A stretch of 38,470 nucleotides of DNA from a virus, in IMG/VR virus record IMGVR_UViG_3300045988_038517, positions 1 through 38,470 of that record; one strand, written 5' to 3'. The notes under the pieces were generated by a model that made no database searches, was not told the DNA's origin, and worked only from the letters and a program-made list of their open reading frames with translations. A program made the position numbers and the translations under genes. Of the stretch, positions 1,826 through 32,727 are shown piece by piece (within the stretch, counting starts at the first letter, position 1; every line of letters starts with the position of its first letter).

Positions 1826-4093
1826 TTAGTTAATTGGTACCCAGCCAAGCCACGCTTTAGTTGTGTCCTCATCCCAAAATCTCATGTAGACTTTACATGT
1901 CTGATAAGATATCCATTTTTGATAAGACCATCCTGCGTATCCTTTATCATGATAGGTTTCCAAGATACCTGCTTGAGTTGGAAATCCTGCTGAACTTCCT
2001 TGAGAATAATTCACAGTGATTATGCTTGTCATTCCAGTTTTGAAATCTGTAATAGGTGAATTATTGCTAAGCTTTTCTCCTTTGAAGCCACCAACTTGTA
2101 CGGTAAACAAATTTGTAGCAAATCCTTTTCGCCCAATGAAAAGATACTCCTCATCAACATCACCGACCGCTACCAGATTCCGCTTTAATGCAAATGCTTC
2201 GCTCGGAGAAAGTATTTTGATCCCTTTACCAACAATGTAATCAATCAAATTAGAAAGCATCTCAATTTGATTTTCTGTTGTATGGGTGTCTGAAACACCG
2301 ACATGTGTATTAAAGATTAACCATTCCCCAGTTTCATATGCTGAGTCAATACATGCTTTATAATATTCCAATGTATCAGTTCCCTCAATGCCACTAATTT
2401 GAGGATTATATGATTCATAACTTCCATAGGCAAGACGATAAATTTTTGATGGGTCTATAAATTCATTACCATTTCGTGCAATTCCAGTAAAGCAATAATC
2501 AAAATATTTTCTAGCTTCCGTCCTGGATAATCTGTCTGTTGTATTTTGCGGAAAAACAAATGCGGAATACTCAAATCCATTTGACTTCAACCAGTTTTTA
2601 GATTCATTATACTGGTAGTCCATTTGAGTTTTTGTTAATGTCGGCATTTTATTGTAATTCGTGTGGCAATGTGATAATGTCTCAATATGTCCACTACTGT
2701 GCATTTCTTTTAATTGGTCAAGTGTAAGCAATCCGCTCGCTTCTCCAATTTTTCCTGTAACAAGAGCCACCCCGAATTTAATATTTTTCTCCTTTAAAAG
2801 TGGGTATAATGCCGTGTAAACAGCCTTGTCACCATCATCATCAATAAATGTAACCACACAATCTTCAACAGATGGCGCAGCGTTTACATACGGGAGAGTC
2901 AAACTAGATACTTCGACTTTTGTACAAGTTTGTTTTGAATTTTCTATTTTTCTATCAACTTGTGGCAAAATATAATCATCAACTGCTTTTTTTCCGTTAT
3001 CAGTCAATTCAATAGTTTCTTTATAATCTCCAATATTATTTATTGTTGATACATAAAATTTATTTTTTATATTTATAGTCGCGCTCGTTTGATAGAAAGC
3101 ACAATTTTCTGGTGTGGTAAATTGCCCTGTTGTGTCTGGGAATAACCATTTTATGATATTTTTATCTTTATCATAAAATACACCGTCACCATTTTCGTTT
3201 TTAAAATATTGTGTATTTGGTTCAACTGGAATAATATGAGTTATAAAATATGCTTTATTGGCAATTCTTCTTCCTTTATTAAGATAATATCCGTCAATAT
3301 TTTCCTCTGATTTTTTGTTGAACCTATTGGATGAATATTGGTATTCTAACGCATCAATTTTTTCTTTACCTTTTAAAAGTCTTTCAACACTTTTGTTTGA
3401 TATTTCAGTCTTATCGCCAGTATAAGCTATAACATTTACGATCGCCCATTTAGATTCACCAATATATTTAGTATATTTGTCTACGGTTTTAACGGAACAT
3501 CTAATATATTTTGCATTGGCATCAGTTGTAAATGGCGATTCATTCCATGCAATCGTTCTCACATACTTGTGTGCGGAATCATAGAGCACGCATGCGGCTT
3601 CGAAATTTTGATAATATTGTTTCCCCGGTTCAATCAACATTTCATCGGAAATATAATAATCTGCATTTTTGGAAGTGTTTTCTTTCGTCCCGGTATAAAT
3701 CTCGCCGTTAATATATGGAGCTGCCTCGGCATTAAACCTGTTCTGACTTAACGGCACACTCTTAAAAAAATCGGTCTTTTCAACTGTTACTGCGCCATCT
3801 TTTGTAGTCTCTAATGTTACTAAATCTTCCTTTAGCTGACTAACCCCCTTCGCGTTCTCCTCCTCCGCTGCCTTCGCTCTGGTTGCCTCCGCATTGACCG
3901 CCTCGCCCACCTTCGCCGCATCCGCAGCCTTGCCGGAGAGGGAGAGGGTGGGGTCGATGGCTTTCTGGATGTTTTCGCCTGCCGTATTTGCAAACTGCTC
4001 CACGTACTCGCCCATCTGGGCGATATCTTCGCGCACTTCCTTGCCCAGAACTGCGTTGCGGATCCCGTCGATGACTTCTTTCCATGGCTTCAT
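1826..4093 (-). CDS. Tail fiber / receptor-binding protein with an internal polysaccharide deacetylase (CE4, NodB-type) domain
   Basis: 755 aa, the last structural gene before lysis. It has a GC-rich conserved N-terminal anchor (about aa 1-85) and two internally similar ~100-aa modules (aa ~115-205 and ~255-345). NodB-like motifs are VTFIDDDGD and HSSGHIETLSHCH (aa ~412-636, nt ~2186-2860). Confidence 0.8.
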   Translation of the reverse strand: MKPWKEVIDGIRNAVLGKEVREDIAQMGEYVEQFANTAGENIQKAIDPTLSLSGKAADAAKVGEAVNAEATRAKAAEEENAKGVSQLKEDLVTLETTKDGAVTVEKTDFFKSVPLSQNRFNAEAAPYINGEIYTGTKENTSKNADYYISDEMLIEPGKQYYQNFEAACVLYDSAHKYVRTIAWNESPFTTDANAKYIRCSVKTVDKYTKYIGESKWAIVNVIAYTGDKTEISNKSVERLLKGKEKIDALEYQYSSNRFNKKSEENIDGYYLNKGRRIANKAYFITHIIPVEPNTQYFKNENGDGVFYDKDKNIIKWLFPDTTGQFTTPENCAFYQTSATINIKNKFYVSTINNIGDYKETIELTDNGKKAVDDYILPQVDRKIENSKQTCTKVEVSSLTLPYVNAAPSVEDCVVTFIDDDGDKAVYTALYPLLKEKNIKFGVALVTGKIGEASGLLTLDQLKEMHSSGHIETLSHCHTNYNKMPTLTKTQMDYQYNESKNWLKSNGFEYSAFVFPQNTTDRLSRTEARKYFDYCFTGIARNGNEFIDPSKIYRLAYGSYESYNPQISGIEGTDTLEYYKACIDSAYETGEWLIFNTHVGVSDTHTTENQIEMLSNLIDYIVGKGIKILSPSEAFALKRNLVAVGDVDEEYLFIGRKGFATNLFTVQVGGFKGEKLSNNSPITDFKTGMTSIITVNYSQGSSAGFPTQAGILETYHDKGYAGWSYQKWISYQTCKVYMRFWDEDTTKAWLGWVPIN

Positions 4094-9522: not shown

Positions 9523-10259
9523 TCAGGATCCCTCACCTCCGTTCTCTTCCACCATGCGGCGGCTGTCTTCCAATGCCTGCTCCCAGAACGCCTCCGCTTC
9601 GGCCAGCGTGGTCTCTCGCCAGTTCGCCCTCGGAGGCTCCACCTCTGCCACGACGTCGGAATAGGTGGTTTCCACCTCGACGCCTACCCCTTTCGCGCAA
9701 AGGCGGATCAGCGAGGACATATAATCGCGGTAAGCGTTCCGTTTGTAGTCTTCTTTGAGCAGATACAGTGCATAATTGTTGAAATACCGCAGGCCATAGG
9801 CCCGCAGATGTTCGAGGCTCGCCCGGCCGATCAGAACCCAAAATCGGTCGCGTTCAACATGCCGAGCGATTTGGTAAAACCCAGCACATCGGGCTGCATC
9901 AAGGTCTGCACCAGAGCGTCCAGAGCTTTCATGATGTTGTCTGATTCGCCCTCTTCCAGCGTGTACAGCTGGTGCAGTGCATCCACCGTGCGCTTCGGGT
10001 CCAGCTTCATCAGCGGCTTGGCAAAGTCCAGCGCGGCAAGGGCAAACTCACGCGGGGTGAGCTTTTTCTTCTCCGCCTGAGTCTCGACCGGTGCGCCCAG
10101 CAGCTTCATGGCGTTGTCCACGATGGCCTGCCGGGCCGCTTTGATCTCCGGGTTGTCCACATTGTCCTTGGCGTCCATCACCATGCGGGTGATGCTGTCG
10201 ATGGCGTCATACAGCTTGGGGATGGACTCCACAGGGTCCAGATTGATGGTCAGGATCAT
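9523..10259 (-). CDS. Tail assembly chaperone G-T fusion made by -1 programmed frameshift (about 245 aa)
   Basis: The -1 frame is open from the heptamer to 9523 and reads protein-like sequence (..LEHLRAYGLRYFNNYALYLLKEDYKRNAYRDYMSSLIRL..EEAFWEQALEDSRRMVEENGGEGS). It ends 14 nt before the tape measure ATG. Confidence 0.7.
9831..10259 (-). CDS. Tail assembly chaperone G
   Basis: 142 aa, acidic, between the major tail and tape measure genes. ATGA overlap with the major tail stop. Contains the slippery heptamer 14 codons before its stop. Confidence 0.75.
   Translation of the reverse strand: MILTINLDPVESIPKLYDAIDSITRMVMDAKDNVDNPEIKAARQAIVDNAMKLLGAPVETQAEKKKLTPREFALAALDFAKPLMKLDPKRTVDALHQLYTLEEGESDNIMKALDALVQTLMQPDVLGFTKSLGMLNATDFGF
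9876..9882 (-). promoter_or_regulatory. -1 ribosomal frameshift slippery heptamer G GGT TTT
   Basis: Minus-strand GGGTTTT sits in the X XXY YYZ phase of the G frame (ctG GGT TTT acc). I verified the phase against the stop at 9831-9833. Confidence 0.7.
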
Positions 10260-18921: not shown

Positions 18922-19057
18922 TGCCGCCAGCTGGATTTGAACCAGCACCCACGGAATGGATGTGCGCAGTGGTTGGCTGTGCAGTGATGTTCCCGTGGTG
19001 TCACCAACGTTGTCCCGCCTTAAATGGGCGGCGCTCTCCCAATTGAGCTATGGCGGC
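18922..19057 (-). tRNA. tRNA-Lys(TTT)-like gene with A at position 33 and a 68-nt insertion at the variable-loop position; no encoded CCA
   Basis: Hand-folded. Acceptor GCCGCCA/TGGCGGC (7 bp), TA, D arm GCTC-AATTGGGA-GAGC, anticodon arm CCGCC-CATTTAA-GGCGG. A 68-nt insert that can form a bulged hairpin follows, then T arm GCTGG-TTCAAAT-CCAGC and A73. Confidence 0.55.
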
Positions 19058-19160: not shown

Positions 19161-19236
19161 TGGCATTCCCGGCAGGGCTCAAACCTGCAGCCTGCGGTTT
19201 TGGAGACCGCTGTTCCATCACTTGAACTACGGGAAT
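19161..19236 (-). tRNA. tRNA-Trp(CCA), CCA encoded
   Basis: Hand-folded as 76 nt. Acceptor ATTCCCG/CGGGAAT, D arm GTTC-AAGTGATG-GAAC, anticodon arm GCGGT-CTCCAAA-ACCGC, variable AGGCT, T arm GCAGG-TTTGAGC-CCTGC, G73, CCA. Confidence 0.85.
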
Positions 19237-26766: not shown

Positions 26767-27480
26767 TCATTTTGCGCACCCCATCTCAAACAGGCTGGTC
26801 TGTCCGTTGGTCTGCTGGATCAGCATCACGGTGTTGGTGCTGGGCTTCCAGCGCTGAATGTACTCCACAGCCTCGTCAAAGCGCTTGCGGGGGATGTTGC
26901 CCACGCTGTTTACCCGGAACCAGTCCTGCACATCGTGGTTGCACTCGCTGTACACCTTGCTGCGCACATGGTTGTCGATGTAGGCCGGGGCATTTTCATT
27001 GCCAAGGGCGCAGATCACCGACCGGCTGATGCTCTTGCGCAGCACACGCTGCTGGTTGTAATCCACCGTCATGGTATTCTCCAGCGCCGTGAGCCGCTGC
27101 TCCTGCCTCTGGGTGCGGTCGTCCAGCAGGAACAGCGCCTGCATCTCCTTGCTGAGCTTGGGCATCTGCGGAGTACTCAGCTTCTTCTCCATCTCGTTGA
27201 ACGCCTGGATGTACTTCAGCTTCCACTCCAGCGCCGCCTTGCCGGTAAAGCCCATCACCAGCAGGCTGAAACCGTCCCGGTTCATCAGGTACATGGGGTA
27301 CTGTTTGCCGCGGTTCTCAAACGTTGTCTCGTAGAACATGGATTTGGCGGCGCAATTTTGTGCCGCCAGTTCTTCGATAGAACGCAAAACCGTTTTGTGT
27401 TCCTTGCCGAAACTCTCGGCGATCTGGCGGCTGGATGCCACCGGCTCTCCGTTCTGGGTGAATAAGATAATGTCGTTCAT
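26767..27480 (-). CDS. Rha-family phage regulatory protein with an ORF6C-like C-terminal domain (antirepressor-type)
   Basis: N-terminal ..GEPVASSRQIAESFGKEHKTVLRSIEEL...FENRGKQYPMYLMNRDGFSLLVMGFTGKAALEWKLKYIQAFNEME is the Rha signature. ATGA overlap with the cro-like gene. Confidence 0.8.
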   Translation of the reverse strand: MNDIILFTQNGEPVASSRQIAESFGKEHKTVLRSIEELAAQNCAAKSMFYETTFENRGKQYPMYLMNRDGFSLLVMGFTGKAALEWKLKYIQAFNEMEKKLSTPQMPKLSKEMQALFLLDDRTQRQEQRLTALENTMTVDYNQQRVLRKSISRSVICALGNENAPAYIDNHVRSKVYSECNHDVQDWFRVNSVGNIPRKRFDEAVEYIQRWKPSTNTVMLIQQTNGQTSLFEMGCAK

Positions 27481-27680
27481 GCTGTTTTGTTCTCCTTTTC
27501 CTTAATCAGTTCGCTGACTGCGGCTTCCATCTTCTCGCGGATGCCGCGCGGCTTGCGCTTGCTGTTCAGGATCAGCGAGCAATAGCTCTTTGTCCATCCC
27601 AGACGTTCCGCAAGCTGTTCCAGCGTGACTTCGTTGTTGTGCATTCTGCCGATCAATCGACCAGTCCACGGTTCAGGCAC
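27477..27680 (-). CDS. Cro-like small HTH regulator, first early gene
   Basis: 67 aa. GTG start 7 nt after GGGAGG. ..VTLEQLAERLGWTKSYCSLILNSKRKP.. is an HTH. It is divergent from the cI-like gene. Confidence 0.6.
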   Translation of the reverse strand: MPEPWTGRLIGRMHNNEVTLEQLAERLGWTKSYCSLILNSKRKPRGIREKMEAAVSELIKEKENKTA

Positions 27681-27710
27681 TCTTTCACCTCCCTGTTATG
27701 TGTTAATGAA

Positions 27711-27739
27711 TTGACAACGGCGCACCGATTTGCTATACT
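27711..27739 (+). promoter_or_regulatory. Sigma70-type promoter TTGACA-17-TATACT firing rightward (away from cro)
   Basis: Exact -35 consensus, 17-nt spacer, 5/6 match at -10. It overlaps a weaker minus-strand TTTAAC-17-TATAGC that could serve cro. Confidence 0.55.
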
Positions 27740-27745
27740 GTTTTA

Positions 27746-28054
27746 CGGCTCCTAGTTAAACTGATTCAAAAGGACGGTGATTTCATTGACCCAACTTTTG
27801 AGCCAGCCAGTTCCAGACACGAGCAAGTGCGTGAAGCGCTAGGGCTTACAAGGCGGCGCCGACCCGCCAAAGGAAGCGGCGCACCCATAGCCCTGCAAGT
27901 TGTTTTTGCAGCCCAGACGTTACTTTTGCGGCATACATGACCGAAAAAGACGTGCAAACGCGCATGTTTGCATTACCGCCGGGGTGCAAGTGCGTTCTGG
28001 TGACAAATCGGTGAAAAGTCTGTCTGTGAAACAACCGCAGGCAGATTTTTTCTT
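27746..28054 (+). ncRNA. Candidate ~300-nt structured RNA, antisense to the early-operon leader
   Basis: Bounded by the promoter at 27711-27739 and the terminator at 28019-28054. No ORF has an RBS. Several GC-rich helices and hairpins are present (27842-27893, 27893-27911, 27953-27972). Confidence 0.4.
28019..28054 (+). terminator. Intrinsic terminator
   Basis: 8-bp stem TCTGTCTG/CAGGCAGA (one G-U pair), 11-nt loop, then TTTTTTCTT. Confidence 0.6.
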
Positions 28055-28073
28055 ATCGCCGTGTCAAAAGTAG

Positions 28074-28102
28074 TTGAAAAAGTTTACAAAACGTGCTATT
28101 AT
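28074..28102 (+). promoter_or_regulatory. Sigma70-type promoter TTGAAA-17-TATTAT upstream of the cI-like gene
   Basis: 5/6 match at -35, 17-nt spacer and 5/6 match at -10. It lies face to face with the minus-strand consensus promoter at 28189-28217. Confidence 0.5.
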
Positions 28103-28188
28103 TGTGTTGCAGACACATAGTATAGATAGCTTGGGCGGGATAGCCGCCGGGGCTTTGTGTTTTGTTAGCTTTTTTAACTTACAAGAGC

Positions 28189-28217
28189 ATTATACAGCTA
28201 GCAAAGTTAGCTGTCAA
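28189..28217 (-). promoter_or_regulatory. Consensus sigma70 promoter TTGACA-17-TATAAT, probable early lytic promoter
   Basis: Minus strand aaaaacgTTGACAgctaactttgctagctgTATAATgct, perfect at both hexamers and in spacing. It sits about 60 bp from the cI-like start and points toward cro. Confidence 0.65.
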
Positions 28218-28238
28218 CGTTTTTTACTAACTTTGCTA
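28199..28238. promoter_or_regulatory. Operator-like 12-bp inverted repeat TAGCAAAGTTAG / CTAACTTTGCTA
   Basis: Arms at 28199-28210 (inside the promoter spacer) and 28227-28238 (just upstream of the -35), 16 nt apart. Confidence 0.5.
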
Positions 28239-28274
28239 ACATTTGTAAGGATGCACGAAAAAGGAGTTTCTTTT

Positions 28275-28628
28275 ATGAGCACTTTTTACGACAACTATAT
28301 TAAGCTGTGTGCATCTTGTGGCAAAAAACCAACTACGGTGTCAAAAGAAATCGGGCTTTCAAATGCTGCGGCAACTGGGTGGAAGAATGGAAAAACCCCA
28401 TCTGCCATAACCAAGCAAAGACTGGCTGATTATTTTGGGATCTCTGTTTCCGAACTTACCGGCGAAGAGCAAAAAGAAAAGCCCAGCACCCCGGAGGATG
28501 CTGAGCGTGAATCGCACGGGCAGGCTATATTAGATAAGTATAATATGCTTGACCCGGCAACACAGGCCATGTTTGAAAAAATGCTCGATGCCGCGCTTGA
28601 GGCGGCAAAAGGGAAAGAAAATGGTTGA
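28275..28628 (+). CDS. cI-like repressor, XRE-family HTH
   Basis: 117 aa starting at MSTFYDNYIKLCASCGKKPTTVSKEIGLSNAAATGWKNGKTPSAITKQRLADYFGISVSEL (HTH_3 pattern). AAAGGAG RBS. The ORF-track 184-aa form has no RBS. Confidence 0.8.
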   Translation: MSTFYDNYIKLCASCGKKPTTVSKEIGLSNAAATGWKNGKTPSAITKQRLADYFGISVSELTGEEQKEKPSTPEDAERESHGQAILDKYNMLDPATQAMFEKMLDAALEAAKGKENG

Positions 28629-29022
28629 TCTTGAACAAGAAGAAGATGCTCTGCGTTATCTTTTGGAAAATTATGAGCGAACACCTGAAATTCCAGACGT
28701 TCCATTTTCCGTTTTTAAGGAGCGGTATGGGAGATACGCAGATGTCGTTACAGATTTATTGATGTCAGATGAGCTGATTGAGGTCAAGCGCAAGGTACAA
28801 AAACTGGATGAGCGCCATTCTACAGTGGTCAATTGTCTGATTCCGACAGCCAAAGGAAGAACATATTTCTTGAAGCAGCAGCGAGAAGCCCGGATTTCAC
28901 GAAAACAGTTCATCCAGAGTGCCGTAATAGCGGTGATATCAGCTATAATTTCTTCTCTTTTGACGCTTCTTGCATCTCATAAGAGTGAAAGTTCATCTGA
29001 ATTTATGAGTTCGAGTTCATAA
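28621..29022 (+). CDS. Hypothetical protein with a C-terminal TM anchor, co-transcribed with the repressor
   Basis: 133 aa. The ATG overlaps the repressor stop. TM segment AVIAVISAIISSLLTLLA. AT-rich gene. Candidate lysogen-expressed cargo. Confidence 0.5.
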   Translation: MVDLEQEEDALRYLLENYERTPEIPDVPFSVFKERYGRYADVVTDLLMSDELIEVKRKVQKLDERHSTVVNCLIPTAKGRTYFLKQQREARISRKQFIQSAVIAVISAIISSLLTLLASHKSESSSEFMSSSS

Positions 29023-30946: not shown

Positions 30947-31540
30947 ATGAGTTATTTTACGGCGGCTAAAATTGGCACTGCGCTTGCAAAAGCGCGTGTG
31001 GAAGCGGGCTTGAGCCAGCGGGAAATGGCGCACCTGATCGGAATGACCGAGCGCACCGTGCAGAACTGGGAAAAAGGGCAGTCAAGCCCAGACGGTGACG
31101 AGATCATGGACTGGTTCACCGCCTGCGGGGCTTCCCCGCTTGCTGCAATGCAAGAGATGCTGCACCCGGAGCTGTATCGGAAGCAGGCCACCAACATGAC
31201 GGACGAGGAGCTGGATGCAGCGATAGCGGGCTTTTTGGACACCTCTCCACGCATCGTTAAAGAAATGATTCTCTTCATCGTGCTGGGCAAACACGGCAGC
31301 TATCCCCCGGCGGCGATCGCCGAAATCTGCGCAAACCTTCACACGCCGCTGCAAAACAAGGTTTCGGTCTGCGGTCAGGTGCTGGATAACTATAACTGCG
31401 CCGTTGCCACCCATACGGACCCCGTGCCAGATGATGTGCACCCGCCGTTGGATTTGCTGGAGACCTCGTACAAGGCAGGCAAGGAAGCTTCCAGACGCGG
31501 AGAAACCGCCTATATGACCAAGAAAGGGCAAAAAGAATGA
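30947..31540 (+). CDS. XRE-family HTH protein with a C-terminal domain, translationally coupled to the integrase
   Basis: 197 aa. ..ALAKARVEAGLSQREMAHLIGMTERTVQNWEKGQSSP is an HTH_3 pattern. The stop overlaps the int ATG (ATGA). Confidence 0.75.
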   Translation: MSYFTAAKIGTALAKARVEAGLSQREMAHLIGMTERTVQNWEKGQSSPDGDEIMDWFTACGASPLAAMQEMLHPELYRKQATNMTDEELDAAIAGFLDTSPRIVKEMILFIVLGKHGSYPPAAIAEICANLHTPLQNKVSVCGQVLDNYNCAVATHTDPVPDDVHPPLDLLETSYKAGKEASRRGETAYMTKKGQKE

Positions 31541-32727
31541 ACTGTATCAGATGCAAGCGAGAGATCCCGGACGGCGCTGCATTCTGCCCATGGTGTGGCA
31601 AGCGTCAGCCGGAGACCGCACAGCCCGCGCAAAGAAAAAAGCGCCGCCGCCCAAAGGGCAGCGGCAGTGTGCGAAAATTGACCGATTCCCATAGATCCCG
31701 CCCGTGGATGGCCAGAACGGGCAAAGGAGAGCTTTTGGGGATGTTCGCCACGTCATCCGAAGCGGTCATTGCATTGGACGAGTACAACGCCAAGCATTCG
31801 AGCGTCGCGCGGATGCGGTACACCTTCAAGGATGTCTATGAACGATGGAATGCTGTGCATTTCAAGGAAGTGGGTGAAAATGGCCGGTACAGCTACGAGC
31901 AGGCATATACAAAGGCCTCTTCCCTCTGGGATTGCGAAATGCGGGAGCTGAAGACCGAGGACTATCAAAAGATCATCACTGAGCTGGCCGAGGCCGGGCT
32001 TTCGCGAAGCACCTGTGAGAAGCAGCGGCAGCTCTTCAGCCAGCTTTGCAAGTGGGCCATGCAGAACGATATCATCTCAATCAACTATGCGGAGGGGCTG
32101 AAGCTGCCCGCGCCCCCGCCCAAAAAGGAACGCACCCTCACAGACGAAGAGATCTCCAAGATTCAGGCTCTTGCCGATGATCGCAGCAAAAACAACCGGT
32201 TCCGCTTTACCGCTCAATTTTCCATTGTGCTGGTTTATACTGGGATGCGCATTGATGAGCTGCTTTCCATGCGCCGGGATGATGTGCATCTGGATGCCGG
32301 GTATCTGATCGGCGGCGAAAAGACCGATGCAGGCCGTCAGCGAATGATTCCAATTCTCGACCCCATCCGCACCATCCTGGCCGGTTGGATGCTGGATAGC
32401 CTGGGCAGCGAGTATCTGCTCCCAACGGCCAACGGGCGCAAGAAGGACGTGAACACGGTCGAGCATTCTTTCCGCCGGATGATGGAGGTCTGCGAGATCA
32501 ACAGGCCCAACACGCCGAAGGAAAAGCGCGTCACCCCGCATTCTCTTCGCCGAACCGCTGCGACCCGCCTTGTGGAAGGCAAGGCAGAACCGACTGCCGT
32601 ACAGGCCATTCTTGGCCACTCCGATTTCACCACTACGGCGGACTATTACACCGCCCACAGCACCGATTATCTGGCCGAAGAAATGAAAAAGTTCAAGTAT
32701 GTAAAGGAACAAAAAGAGAACAAATAG
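31537..32727 (+). CDS. int: Tyrosine site-specific integrase with an N-terminal zinc ribbon
   Basis: 396 aa. CIRCKREIPDGAAFCPWCG. The catalytic region has ..RIDELLSMRRDDV.., HSLRRTAATRL and ILGHSDFTTTADYYTA (R..HxxR..Y pattern). Confidence 0.9.
   Translation: MNCIRCKREIPDGAAFCPWCGKRQPETAQPAQRKKRRRPKGSGSVRKLTDSHRSRPWMARTGKGELLGMFATSSEAVIALDEYNAKHSSVARMRYTFKDVYERWNAVHFKEVGENGRYSYEQAYTKASSLWDCEMRELKTEDYQKIITELAEAGLSRSTCEKQRQLFSQLCKWAMQNDIISINYAEGLKLPAPPPKKERTLTDEEISKIQALADDRSKNNRFRFTAQFSIVLVYTGMRIDELLSMRRDDVHLDAGYLIGGEKTDAGRQRMIPILDPIRTILAGWMLDSLGSEYLLPTANGRKKDVNTVEHSFRRMMEVCEINRPNTPKEKRVTPHSLRRTAATRLVEGKAEPTAVQAILGHSDFTTTADYYTAHSTDYLAEEMKKFKYVKEQKENK

Follow-up and report, generated by a model that had tools for sequence, protein, structure and literature searches.

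The DNA analysed here comprises the 38,470 nucleotides (nt) of IMG/VR virus record IMGVR_UViG_3300045988_038517, referred to at its full length as the window, which carries integrase, terminase and tail genes and represents a temperate phage. Our subject is the interval of 594 base pairs (bp) between the GTG start of a cro-like gene (27680, minus strand) and the ATG start of a cI-like gene (28275, plus strand), in which we identified what is almost certainly a divergent member of the FuFi-1 RNA family, placed antisense to the leader of the predicted early lytic transcript. The genes, predicted promoters and RNA are arranged as follows.

27477 to 27680, minus strand: cro-like gene for a small helix-turn-helix (HTH) protein of 67 amino acids (aa); Pfam HTH_3 at 22.8 bits, which is borderline, and PHROG 1468, 'transcriptional repressor'.
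27711 to 27739, plus strand: predicted promoter of the FuFi-1 unit, TTGACA-17-tgcTATACT, 11/12 consensus positions with an extended -10 TG; predicted transcription start near 27746.
27827 to 28050, plus strand: FuFi-1 RNA (Rfam RF02986), full-length match over model positions 1-175; cmscan 67.1 bits against a gathering score of 59.6, E 1.3e-13.
28074 to 28102, plus strand: predicted promoter of the cI-like gene, TTGAAA-17-TATTAT, 10/12 with TG.
28217 to 28189, minus strand: predicted early lytic promoter, TTGACA-17-TATAAT, 12/12.
28199 to 28210 and 28227 to 28238: operator-like inverted repeat, TAGCAAAGTTAG and CTAACTTTGCTA, with exact 12-bp arms flanking the -35 element of the lytic promoter.
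28275 to 28628, plus strand: cI-like gene for an XRE-family HTH protein of 117 aa; Pfam HTH_3 at 23.7 bits and PHROG 8 at 3e-9.

The Rfam match was obtained on the plus strand only, and the intrinsic terminator of the RNA forms the last helix of the model. Weinberg et al. described FuFi-1 (Fusobacteria/Firmicutes-1) in 2017 within a set of 224 motifs (PMC5737381); the main text of their paper reports no self-cleavage, judges a riboswitch role improbable, lists no protein or gene association and leaves the function as not known. The same text counts FuFi-1 among a small number of bacterial orphan RNAs for which conservation and a pseudoknot point to a 'sophisticated biochemical function', with junction nucleotides conserved at 97% and a fold conserved across phyla (Fusobacteria and Firmicutes); a search of the accessible literature for FuFi-1 returned nothing beyond this paper. 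The original prediction, made from the letters of this DNA alone, had treated such an RNA as undescribed for this kind of Gram-positive siphovirus; its novelty is not supported, although the published family itself is without known function, and a confident Rfam match, named beforehand as a result that might overturn it, was indeed found. Our assignment to the family follows from the above-threshold, full-length and strand-specific match, from base pairing with compensatory changes, from family-wide covariation of a kissing-loop interaction and from G-U pairs and a terminator that belong to the plus strand.

Canonical FuFi-1 copies score 118–147 bits in comparison to only 67 bits for the window copy. 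Both share helices P2 and P3, the closing helix, the CAUAG and UGCA junctions, the 3' terminator, pairing between the P3 loop and the terminator loop, and a Firmicutes phage context. In contrast to canonical copies, the window RNA has a poorly formed P1 (60% paired in its clade, where an alternative GUGCG/CGCAC pairing competes with the closing helix), a ~55-nt insertion in P4 and a mini-ORF (small open reading frame, ORF) that abuts the core, whereas the canonical mini-ORF is set off by a 5' domain of 100–170 nt. Of the conserved junctions (the GAAC..AAAC loop, AUAGAA, UGCA and GGUAAACAAAUUUGG), the window keeps CAUAG and UGCA, while its P2 loop CGCCGAC and its 3' motif (GGUGACAAAUCGG, in place of canonical GGUAAACAAAUUUGG) diverge and are only partly retained. 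The canonical CAAAUUUG is palindromic.

The fold was assessed in an alignment of 39 unique clade sequences, using a structure derived from Rfam to which a 5' hairpin and a loop-loop helix were added. Its elements, and those that accompany it, are listed below (all plus strand).

27761 to 27806: 5' hairpin, in which CAAAAG, the A-rich part of the Shine-Dalgarno (SD) sequence, pairs with CUUUUG of mini-ORF codons 4-5; -15.0 kcal/mol, z -2.6.
27786 to 27842: candidate leader mini-ORF MTQLLSQPVPDTSKCVKR, 18 codons, TTG start at 27786 and TAG stop at 27840-42, with SD-like AAAGGAcGGUGAU at 27769-27781.
27823 to 27832 and 27986 to 27995: two copies of the 10-nt direct repeat GCAAGTGCGT, end points of core deletions in two relatives (L009 and L133).
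27852 to 27868: P2 hairpin, GGCGG/CCGCC, 100% paired; one pair changed from G-C to A-U in 11 sequences.
27880 to 27994: closing helix from the Rfam alignment, CGCACC (27880-85) with AGUGCG (27989-94), enclosing P3 and P4; 89.7% of cells paired.
27893 to 27911: P3 hairpin, helix 100% paired, with loop GUUGUUU at 27899-27905.
27912 to 27984: P4 stem, CCCAGACG with CGCCGGGG, carrying the ~55-nt clade-specific insertion relative to the Rfam model, which includes a hairpin at 27953-27972; three compensatory pairs.
27995 to 28015: 3' junction motif UUCUGGUGACAAAUCGGUGAA, counterpart of canonical AUAGGGUAAACAAAUUUGG; invariant in the clade.
28016 to 28053: strand-specific intrinsic terminator, part of the Rfam model, with a 13-bp stem, loop AAACAAC at 28029-28035 and U6; -21.5 kcal/mol, z -5.1.

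Overall, 93.6% of cells in this alignment were paired, against 38–44% in slid controls, and compensatory changes occurred at 8 pairs, giving a covariation score that was reached by 0/500 shuffles. Pairing in the Rfam helices P2, P3 and P4, the closing helix and the terminator ranged from 89 to 100%, and the 5' hairpin was paired in 100% of the 39 sequences with one compensatory pair (RNAalifold model). For the predicted RNA as a whole (27746-28053) the folding energy is -111 kcal/mol, with a z-score of -3.2 relative to shuffles.

The pseudoknot is carried by a kissing helix of 7 bp between the P3 loop and the terminator loop, 99.6% paired and with two doubly compensated pairs; in a sister clade the loops read GUCGCUU and AAGCGAC, a double compensation. 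Among 101 unique FuFi-1 sequences, clade and canonical together, a Watson-Crick loop-loop complement of at least 6 bp was present in 92%, in comparison to 2.5% of mismatched controls, with more than 17 distinct loop pairs represented. Covariation establishes the fold and its pseudoknot. Four recombinant cassettes (L075, L039, L017 and L002) combine a P3 loop from one clade with a terminator loop from the other and keep the kissing helix by G-U wobbles only; these mixed-clade loops indicate recombination inside the RNA gene.

On the minus strand, the mirror hairpin of the terminator reached only -11.2 kcal/mol (z -1.0). The G-U pairs and this energy asymmetry argue that the functional fold belongs to the plus-strand RNA and that the terminator is unidirectional; a bidirectional terminator was rejected on the weakness of the mirror hairpin. 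A second terminator-like hairpin on the minus strand, at 27972-27953, was no stabler than shuffles (z -0.35) and was likewise set aside, and a simple terminator scan did not list the hairpin at 28016-28048. Much of what the original prediction had described in this segment was upheld, namely the terminator about 300 nt downstream of the plus-strand promoter (hairpin 28016-28048 plus U-run), the hairpins at 27893-27911 and 27953-27972, the GGCGG/CCGCC pair and a 9-mer, CCGCCGGGG, that occurs twice. Its proposal of a discrete, structured, promoter-to-terminator plus-strand RNA antisense to a ~500-nt lytic leader is supported by the sequence, and the covariation it had suggested testing among homologous switch regions was found.

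Promoters were predicted by consensus scan, which returned 6 promoter-like sites in 3 kb against 2.8 +/- 1.8 in shuffles. At the offset of the lytic promoter, a site matching 10–12 of 12 positions was present in 38/38 distinct related contexts; the cI promoter was likewise found at its offset in 38/38, as well as in a relative that lacks FuFi-1 (L049), and the nearly invariant promoter of the FuFi-1 unit was found in 36/38. Because these offsets recur across 38 distinct contexts, we do not regard the listed promoters as chance matches. The scan found no minus-strand promoter-like site closer to the cro-like gene than 28217-28189, so that the predicted lytic transcript must cross the FuFi-1 gene in antisense, as a leader of ~500 nt, before reaching the cro-like gene. 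The cI and lytic promoters face each other and their predicted transcripts overlap by ~73 nt. All three promoters, the exact inverted repeat and the convergent arrangement likened to coliphages 186 and P2 had been called in advance and were confirmed as sequence features, the promoters recurring among relatives and the head-on layout in distant FuFi-1 loci. The two 12-bp arms of the repeat are the only exact copies in the window and form a putative operator.

The second copy of CCGCCGGGG provides the 3' arm of a small hairpin (28135-28152; GGCGG at 28135-39 with CCGCC at 28144-48), and falls exactly in the ~73-nt overlap of the convergent promoters. An imperfect 21-nt inverted repeat (28072-92/28159-79) brackets the same overlap.

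Relatives were collected with the cI-like and Rha proteins on either side as probes, which yielded 160 IMG/VR loci; the relatives of the window phage are human-gut viral contigs. The FuFi-1 cassette was found in 58 of them at 78–98% nucleotide identity, while their cI-like proteins were only 38–91% identical to that of the window. It spans ~345 bp and consists of the promoter, the 5' hairpin with SD and mini-ORF, the pseudoknotted core (27827-28015) and the terminator. The distance from cro start to cI start was 595–609 bp in all cassette-bearing relatives, in comparison to 224–251 bp in five relatives that have homologous genes but lack FuFi-1 (L049, L050, L107, L128 and L160), and Rfam detected no FuFi-1 in any of the 17 cassette-less relatives scanned. 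L049 still has a plus-strand cI promoter, at 22 nt from the cro start, and ~70 bp from cI a minus-strand TTGACT-17-TATACT; as this relative keeps the promoter pair, the ancestral switch was a short one with face-to-face promoters. On this comparison the FuFi-1 unit is a ~345-bp insertion into the cro leader, with the cro-like start codon on one side and the cI promoter on the other.

In L009 (3562-4001) and L133 (3338-3765) the FuFi-1 core has been lost by natural deletion between the GCAAGTGCGT repeats, whereas the promoter, the mini-ORF start and the terminator are kept in both. In a further clade (L053, at 3490-3790, and also L054-L070 and L076) the same slot holds a 39-codon ORF with the ribosome-binding site MRNAAHTSSELASLAGKLMHHEDKDVRSLAAIALANRRK and a GC hairpin/T-run; this ORF had no PHROG family match. 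As it stands behind a promoter nearly identical to the FuFi-1 promoter, the slot between cro and cI is a position for interchangeable cargo. The cassette-less relatives, the exchanged cargo and the two core deletions together indicate that the cassette is optional and mobile by recombination. The FuFi-1 promoter spacer CACCGATTTG (27723-27732) is a perfect 10-nt complement of the conserved RNA 3' motif CAAATCGGTG (28004-28013); this complement is absent from the L053-type promoter, which drives a protein ORF, and did not generalise to canonical FuFi-1 loci.

The family survey covered ~170 related loci, in which FuFi-1 occupies the part of temperate gut phage genomes that controls lysis and lysogeny. 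An IMG/VR pattern scan for the canonical 3' motif returned 120 loci, 111 of which also possessed the P2 motif, and the 11 canonical-pattern loci tested by covariance model were all FuFi-1 (11/11, at 118–147 bits). Two layouts were observed. In type I, to which the window belongs, a small divergent HTH gene is followed by promoter, mini-ORF, FuFi-1 and terminator, with a cI-type gene on the same strand. In type II, an antirepressor gene (ORF6N or AntA/KilAC) opposes FuFi-1, a small cro-like gene in the opposing orientation ends at the terminator, and a cI-type gene again follows on the FuFi-1 strand. A cI-like gene was co-oriented downstream in at least 69 of the 96 loci with enough flank, the antirepressor and cro-like genes occupied the strand opposite FuFi-1, and Pfam analysis of 29 diverse representatives showed an XRE-type HTH in 16 and Peptidase_S24 (LexA/CI-type) in 5.

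An opposing promoter-like site of at least 10/12 (mostly 11–12/12), situated no more than 700 nt downstream of FuFi-1 and aimed at it, was present in 67/75 unique loci, as against 0/75 with such a site upstream, and a same-strand promoter lay just upstream of the mini-ORF in 65/75. Individual promoter scans of L163, L193 and L164 agreed with the opposing-promoter count; in L163 and L164 the cI and lytic promoters stand back-to-back rather than face-to-face. Judged from this conserved geometry, FuFi-1 generally lies in antisense within the opening half-kilobase of the predicted early lytic unit and is co-oriented with the repressor gene. In bacterial genomes the true canonical FuFi-1 matches were, among the matches listed, all from Clostridia, and the window-clade pattern gave 0 matches in bacterial contigs (one genome per species). 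A blastn comparison with deposited GenBank phages gave no match to canonical FuFi-1 units, and at that sensitivity there is therefore no cultured model; the window itself matched GenBank phages by blastn in only 81 nt of the Rha gene, in Faecalibacterium phage Aster.

The absence of a credible ORF from the interval had also been predicted. This held for the ORFs of at least 25 aa (27766-27957, 27846-28034, 27827-27940, 27937-28014 and 27920-28006), which were rejected as genes, being intact in only 2–17 of 39 relatives, and did not hold for the 18-codon mini-ORF with its SD, which was kept in 39/39. The mini-ORF ends inside the first helix of the Rfam model, lies otherwise outside it and is covered by no other Rfam family. 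A variant clade uses another start (TTG) and a 30-codon frame with the same ..[LF]L[NS]QPVPDTSKC.. reading, and canonical loci carry an upstream element of GGCAAnGAAAGGAG, 7-9 nt, ATG/TTG/GTG and then ACC-CAA-CTT-TTG-AAT-TTG-CCT-GTT-CCC, the resulting mini-ORF (MTxLLxLPxP, 12–36 codons) being present in 59/69 unique upstream regions. It is important to note that a 12-codon open frame is likely by chance, that variation is not in excess at third positions (entropy 0.66/0.54/0.67 across the codon positions), that in one large clade LPVP becomes LPCS through a 1-nt insertion and that three FuFi-1 loci (L181, L220 and L240) have no mini-ORF. The peptides had no Pfam or PHROG family match. Because of these caveats and of the SD being part of a hairpin, we grade the mini-ORF as a candidate for a translated leader ORF, with mixed constraint at the level of RNA and of peptide.

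Mini-ORF codons 9-11 (27810-27817) may in addition pair with the conserved 3' motif at 27995-28015. One position of this long-range pairing (codons 7-11 with the 3' motif) is A-U, C-G or U-A in three clades, although the variants UGCU, GGACAU and GGAAAA contradict it and the duplex energy is only 0.75 standard deviations better than shuffles. In canonical loci such as L161, L167, L193 and L213, an extra conserved 5' domain of ~100–170 nt, GGUCGCAA ... CCAAAGCNCNUUAAACUGG ... ACUGAUACGGCG ... CUCAGNGAAGAGG, lies between the mini-ORF and the start of the FuFi-1 model and is covered by no Rfam family; the transcribed canonical RNA probably reaches 350–400 nt, roughly double the length of the Rfam model. 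L240 has lost this domain through a natural deletion between AATGGGCA repeats.

Beyond the interval, the cro-like gene is the first of the minus-strand early/lytic operon and is followed by Rha/ORF6C (26767-27480) and then by lytic genes. The integrase gene (31537-32727; Pfam match 1.8e-26) lies on the strand of the cI-like gene and, as its position defines the lysogeny strand, that strand was assigned accordingly. A second, larger XRE-family HTH protein (30947-31540, plus strand; 197 aa, HTH_3 1.6e-11) is encoded directly upstream of and overlapping the integrase gene, so that both HTH proteins, of 117 and 197 aa, are candidates for the maintenance repressor. No tRNA or tmRNA was found in the cro-cI interval, and the other Rfam matches in 27000-29000 were microRNA/snoRNA-type chance matches far under their thresholds, which were discarded. 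In the phage lytic region, an Rfam tRNA match of 136 nt (18922-19057, minus strand; 51.1 bits over the whole model) that ARAGORN did not call adjoins tRNA-Trp (19161-19236); the match has a ~65-nt insertion where the variable loop would be and, in CAUUUAA, an unusual anticodon loop. One FuFi-1-bearing viral contig (L253) carries a Hammerhead type II ribozyme match (9879-9947, minus strand; 44.2 bits against a gathering score of 37) ~2.3 kb from its FuFi-1 RNA.

We tentatively interpret this arrangement, at a little under an even chance, as reciprocal antagonism, in which an RNA from the lysogeny side, lying antisense inside the early lytic transcript, would damp cro and antirepressor expression. 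The RNA would be made from the repressor/integrase strand, chiefly while the lytic promoter is repressed, and would accumulate in lysogens, the promoters and terminator being taken to work as predicted. As the early lytic transcript would meet the FuFi-1 gene head-on in its initial 0.5 kb, polymerases leaving the 12/12 lytic promoter would have to pass through ~300 bp of converging transcription, and the lytic leader would be the full complement (~300 nt) of an abundant, stable and folded RNA. Mutual antagonism could then arise through transcriptional interference together with antisense pairing and cleavage; head-on transcription and complementarity would lower expression of cro and of the Rha antirepressor, and lysogeny and immunity would be sharpened or stabilised. 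The terminator would halt FuFi-1 transcription ahead of the cI and lytic promoters while being weak in the lytic direction, and the conserved fold and junction nucleotides probably serve stability and/or binding of a conserved partner.

Reciprocal antagonism is favoured because it is the only model that makes use of the invariant opposition to the lytic promoter near the switch, and several points weigh against it. The promoters, the start of transcription and the 3' end have been predicted from consensus or folding, and the cI-like and cro-like labels derive from weak HTH matches combined with gene order. Simple antisense action or interference needs neither a fold kept across phyla nor junction nucleotides conserved at 97%, as given in the main text of the 2017 paper (PMC5737381), and the conserved mini-ORF is not accounted for. 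The RNA (27746-28053) overlaps the ribosome-binding site of neither cro (start 27680) nor Rha (27480), and the cassette is dispensable, with relatives that lack it or hold a protein ORF in the slot. No operator-like site was found near the FuFi-1 promoter, and lysogen-specific expression is suggested by the head-on geometry alone.

As the junction nucleotides and the mini-ORF are left unexplained, two rivals stay alive. FuFi-1 may be a trans-acting structured RNA, an 'RNA moron' with a conserved host or phage partner and a role in, for example, superinfection exclusion, defence or host physiology, for which the head-on position would serve only to shut the RNA off when the lytic promoter fires and so make it lysogen-specific. 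We consider this possible, if on the unlikely side. It would suit the pseudoknot and the highly conserved unpaired nucleotides described from Fusobacteria and Firmicutes in the main text of Weinberg et al. (PMC5737381), the organisation as promoter, gene and terminator in a slot where the L053 clade has a small protein ORF instead, the dispensability of the cassette in relatives, and the 78–98% identity retained among phages with differing repressors; it fits less well with the generic cI-, cro- and ant-type neighbours from many families, with no protein family consistently linked, and with a position far tighter than that of ordinary morons, in every case no more than ~0.5 kb from the lytic promoter and opposed to it. 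Alternatively, and in our judgement quite improbably, the RNA may be a cis-acting leader or attenuator of the repressor gene, giving conditional readthrough into cI in type I loci or antisense readthrough via cro into cI in type II loci, as from lambda P_RE, where ribosome occupancy of the mini-ORF would remodel the fold and couple host translation status to repressor supply. Several observations speak for such a leader: in at least 69/96 loci the co-oriented gene that follows is cI-like, a hairpin encloses the SD and start of the conserved mini-ORF, codons 9-11 may pair with the conserved 3' motif beside the terminator, and the U-tracts of some canonical terminators are interrupted. Yet cI is served by a separate promoter beyond the terminator, one that relatives lacking FuFi-1 also have, the window terminator is strong (U6, -21.5 kcal/mol), a conserved antiterminator alternative was not found, the position of the mini-ORF stop varies between ~160 nt upstream of P2 and the interior of P2, the long-range pairing has mixed covariation support, and the main text of the 2017 paper judges a riboswitch role improbable (PMC5737381).

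Two further readings carry much less weight. That the small peptide (MTxLLxLPxP...) is the functional product, with FuFi-1 merely stabilising or terminating its mRNA, would agree with the conserved SD, start codon and N-terminal ~10 residues and with L162 and the variant clade, whose nucleotides diverge while the ..[LF]..LPVP frame is kept. We hold it to be very unlikely, since the peptides vary from 12 to 36 aa with unrelated tails, the RNA core is better conserved than the mini-ORF, and the LPVP to LPCS insertion clade, the lack of third-position excess, the chance-length frame, the ORF-less loci (L181, L220, L240) and the absence of a Pfam or PHROG match all tell against it. The scarcely tenable reading is that chance promoter-like and hairpin sequences have collected in a long spacer without function; consensus scans alone are indeed no evidence of function, but the Rfam E value of 1e-13, the compensatory changes, conservation above that of the flanking genes and fixed positions in 38 contexts contradict it.

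A more far-reaching proposal, which we put forward as doubtful, is that Rfam FuFi-1 is only the 3' domain of a larger family-wide unit acting as a translation-sensitive riboregulator of the lysis-lysogeny decision. This unit would comprise the promoter, an SD-bearing mini-ORF locked in helices, the pseudoknotted core and the terminator, always set head-on against the early lytic transcript and in the same direction as cI, and ribosome occupancy would choose between a stable, terminated anti-lytic RNA and an opened form allowing readthrough to the repressor gene. If this were true, the translational status of the host would feed into the switch in many phages of gut Clostridia.

In summary, the lysis/lysogeny context facing a lytic promoter gives the orphan FuFi-1 motif a testable functional hypothesis, for which the natural knockouts (L009 and L133) and the cassette-less sister phages are comparators at hand. 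Judging by the literature accessible to us, three findings add to the main text of the 2017 description (PMC5737381), namely the regular placement of FuFi-1 in the immunity region, on the repressor strand and against a lytic promoter, the conserved mini-ORF domain at its 5' end, and the quantified covariation between its loops. RNA-level control of the switch, known from a few enterobacterial phages, may be widespread in phages of gut Firmicutes.

Among known systems, the pR/pL and Pe/Pc promoters of coliphages 186 and P2 resemble the window in having convergent lytic and lysogenic promoters, here predicted by consensus scan with an overlap of ~73 nt (~55 nt in L049, which lacks FuFi-1), and in the transcriptional interference expected to couple them. 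The window differs in its Gram-positive-type host, in regulators that are generic XRE HTH proteins matching no 186/P2 family and showing no CI/Apl or C/Cox homology, and in a third promoter and RNA gene that add a second convergent zone of ~300 bp; some FuFi-1 phages (L163, L164), moreover, have back-to-back cI and lytic promoters. The switch is accordingly best described as analogous to 186/P2 and not as a member of that group.

The sar RNA of P22 (immI, arc-ant) is likewise a small RNA directed against an early regulatory operon near an antirepressor gene, and type II FuFi-1 RNAs lie between a cro-like gene and an antirepressor gene; sar, however, is a simple RNA of ~69 nt overlapping the ant ribosome-binding site, whereas FuFi-1 RNAs are 170–300 nt, pseudoknotted and cross-phylum. 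Lambda OOP and the P_RE anti-cro transcript share with FuFi-1 the lysogeny direction and the antisense relation to early lytic mRNA beside the switch, and type II readthrough would, like P_RE transcription, run antisense to cro and sense to cI. In contrast to them, FuFi-1 has its own strong terminator, no CII-type activator site and no sequence or structure similarity. Both sar and OOP overlap a ribosome-binding site and are without a conserved tertiary fold, and the window RNA is the opposite on both counts. The P4 CI RNA and P1/P7 c4, cited in the original prediction as parallels for a possible RNA layer of immunity, are stable, processed or terminated phage RNAs for which a role in immunity by pairing with early transcripts has been proposed, but they act through short seed-target repeats that cause premature termination or a translation block; in the window no repeated target sites were found, the one exception being the 10-nt promoter-spacer complement, and the antisense overlap is complete. 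The prgQ (Qs RNA)/Anti-Q system of pCF10 serves plasmid conjugation control, encodes in prgQ the precursor of a secreted pheromone inhibitor and has no homology to the window, yet it too combines a terminated, structured RNA bearing a small 5' peptide ORF with converging promoters, a nearby XRE-type repressor gene and a bistable switch.

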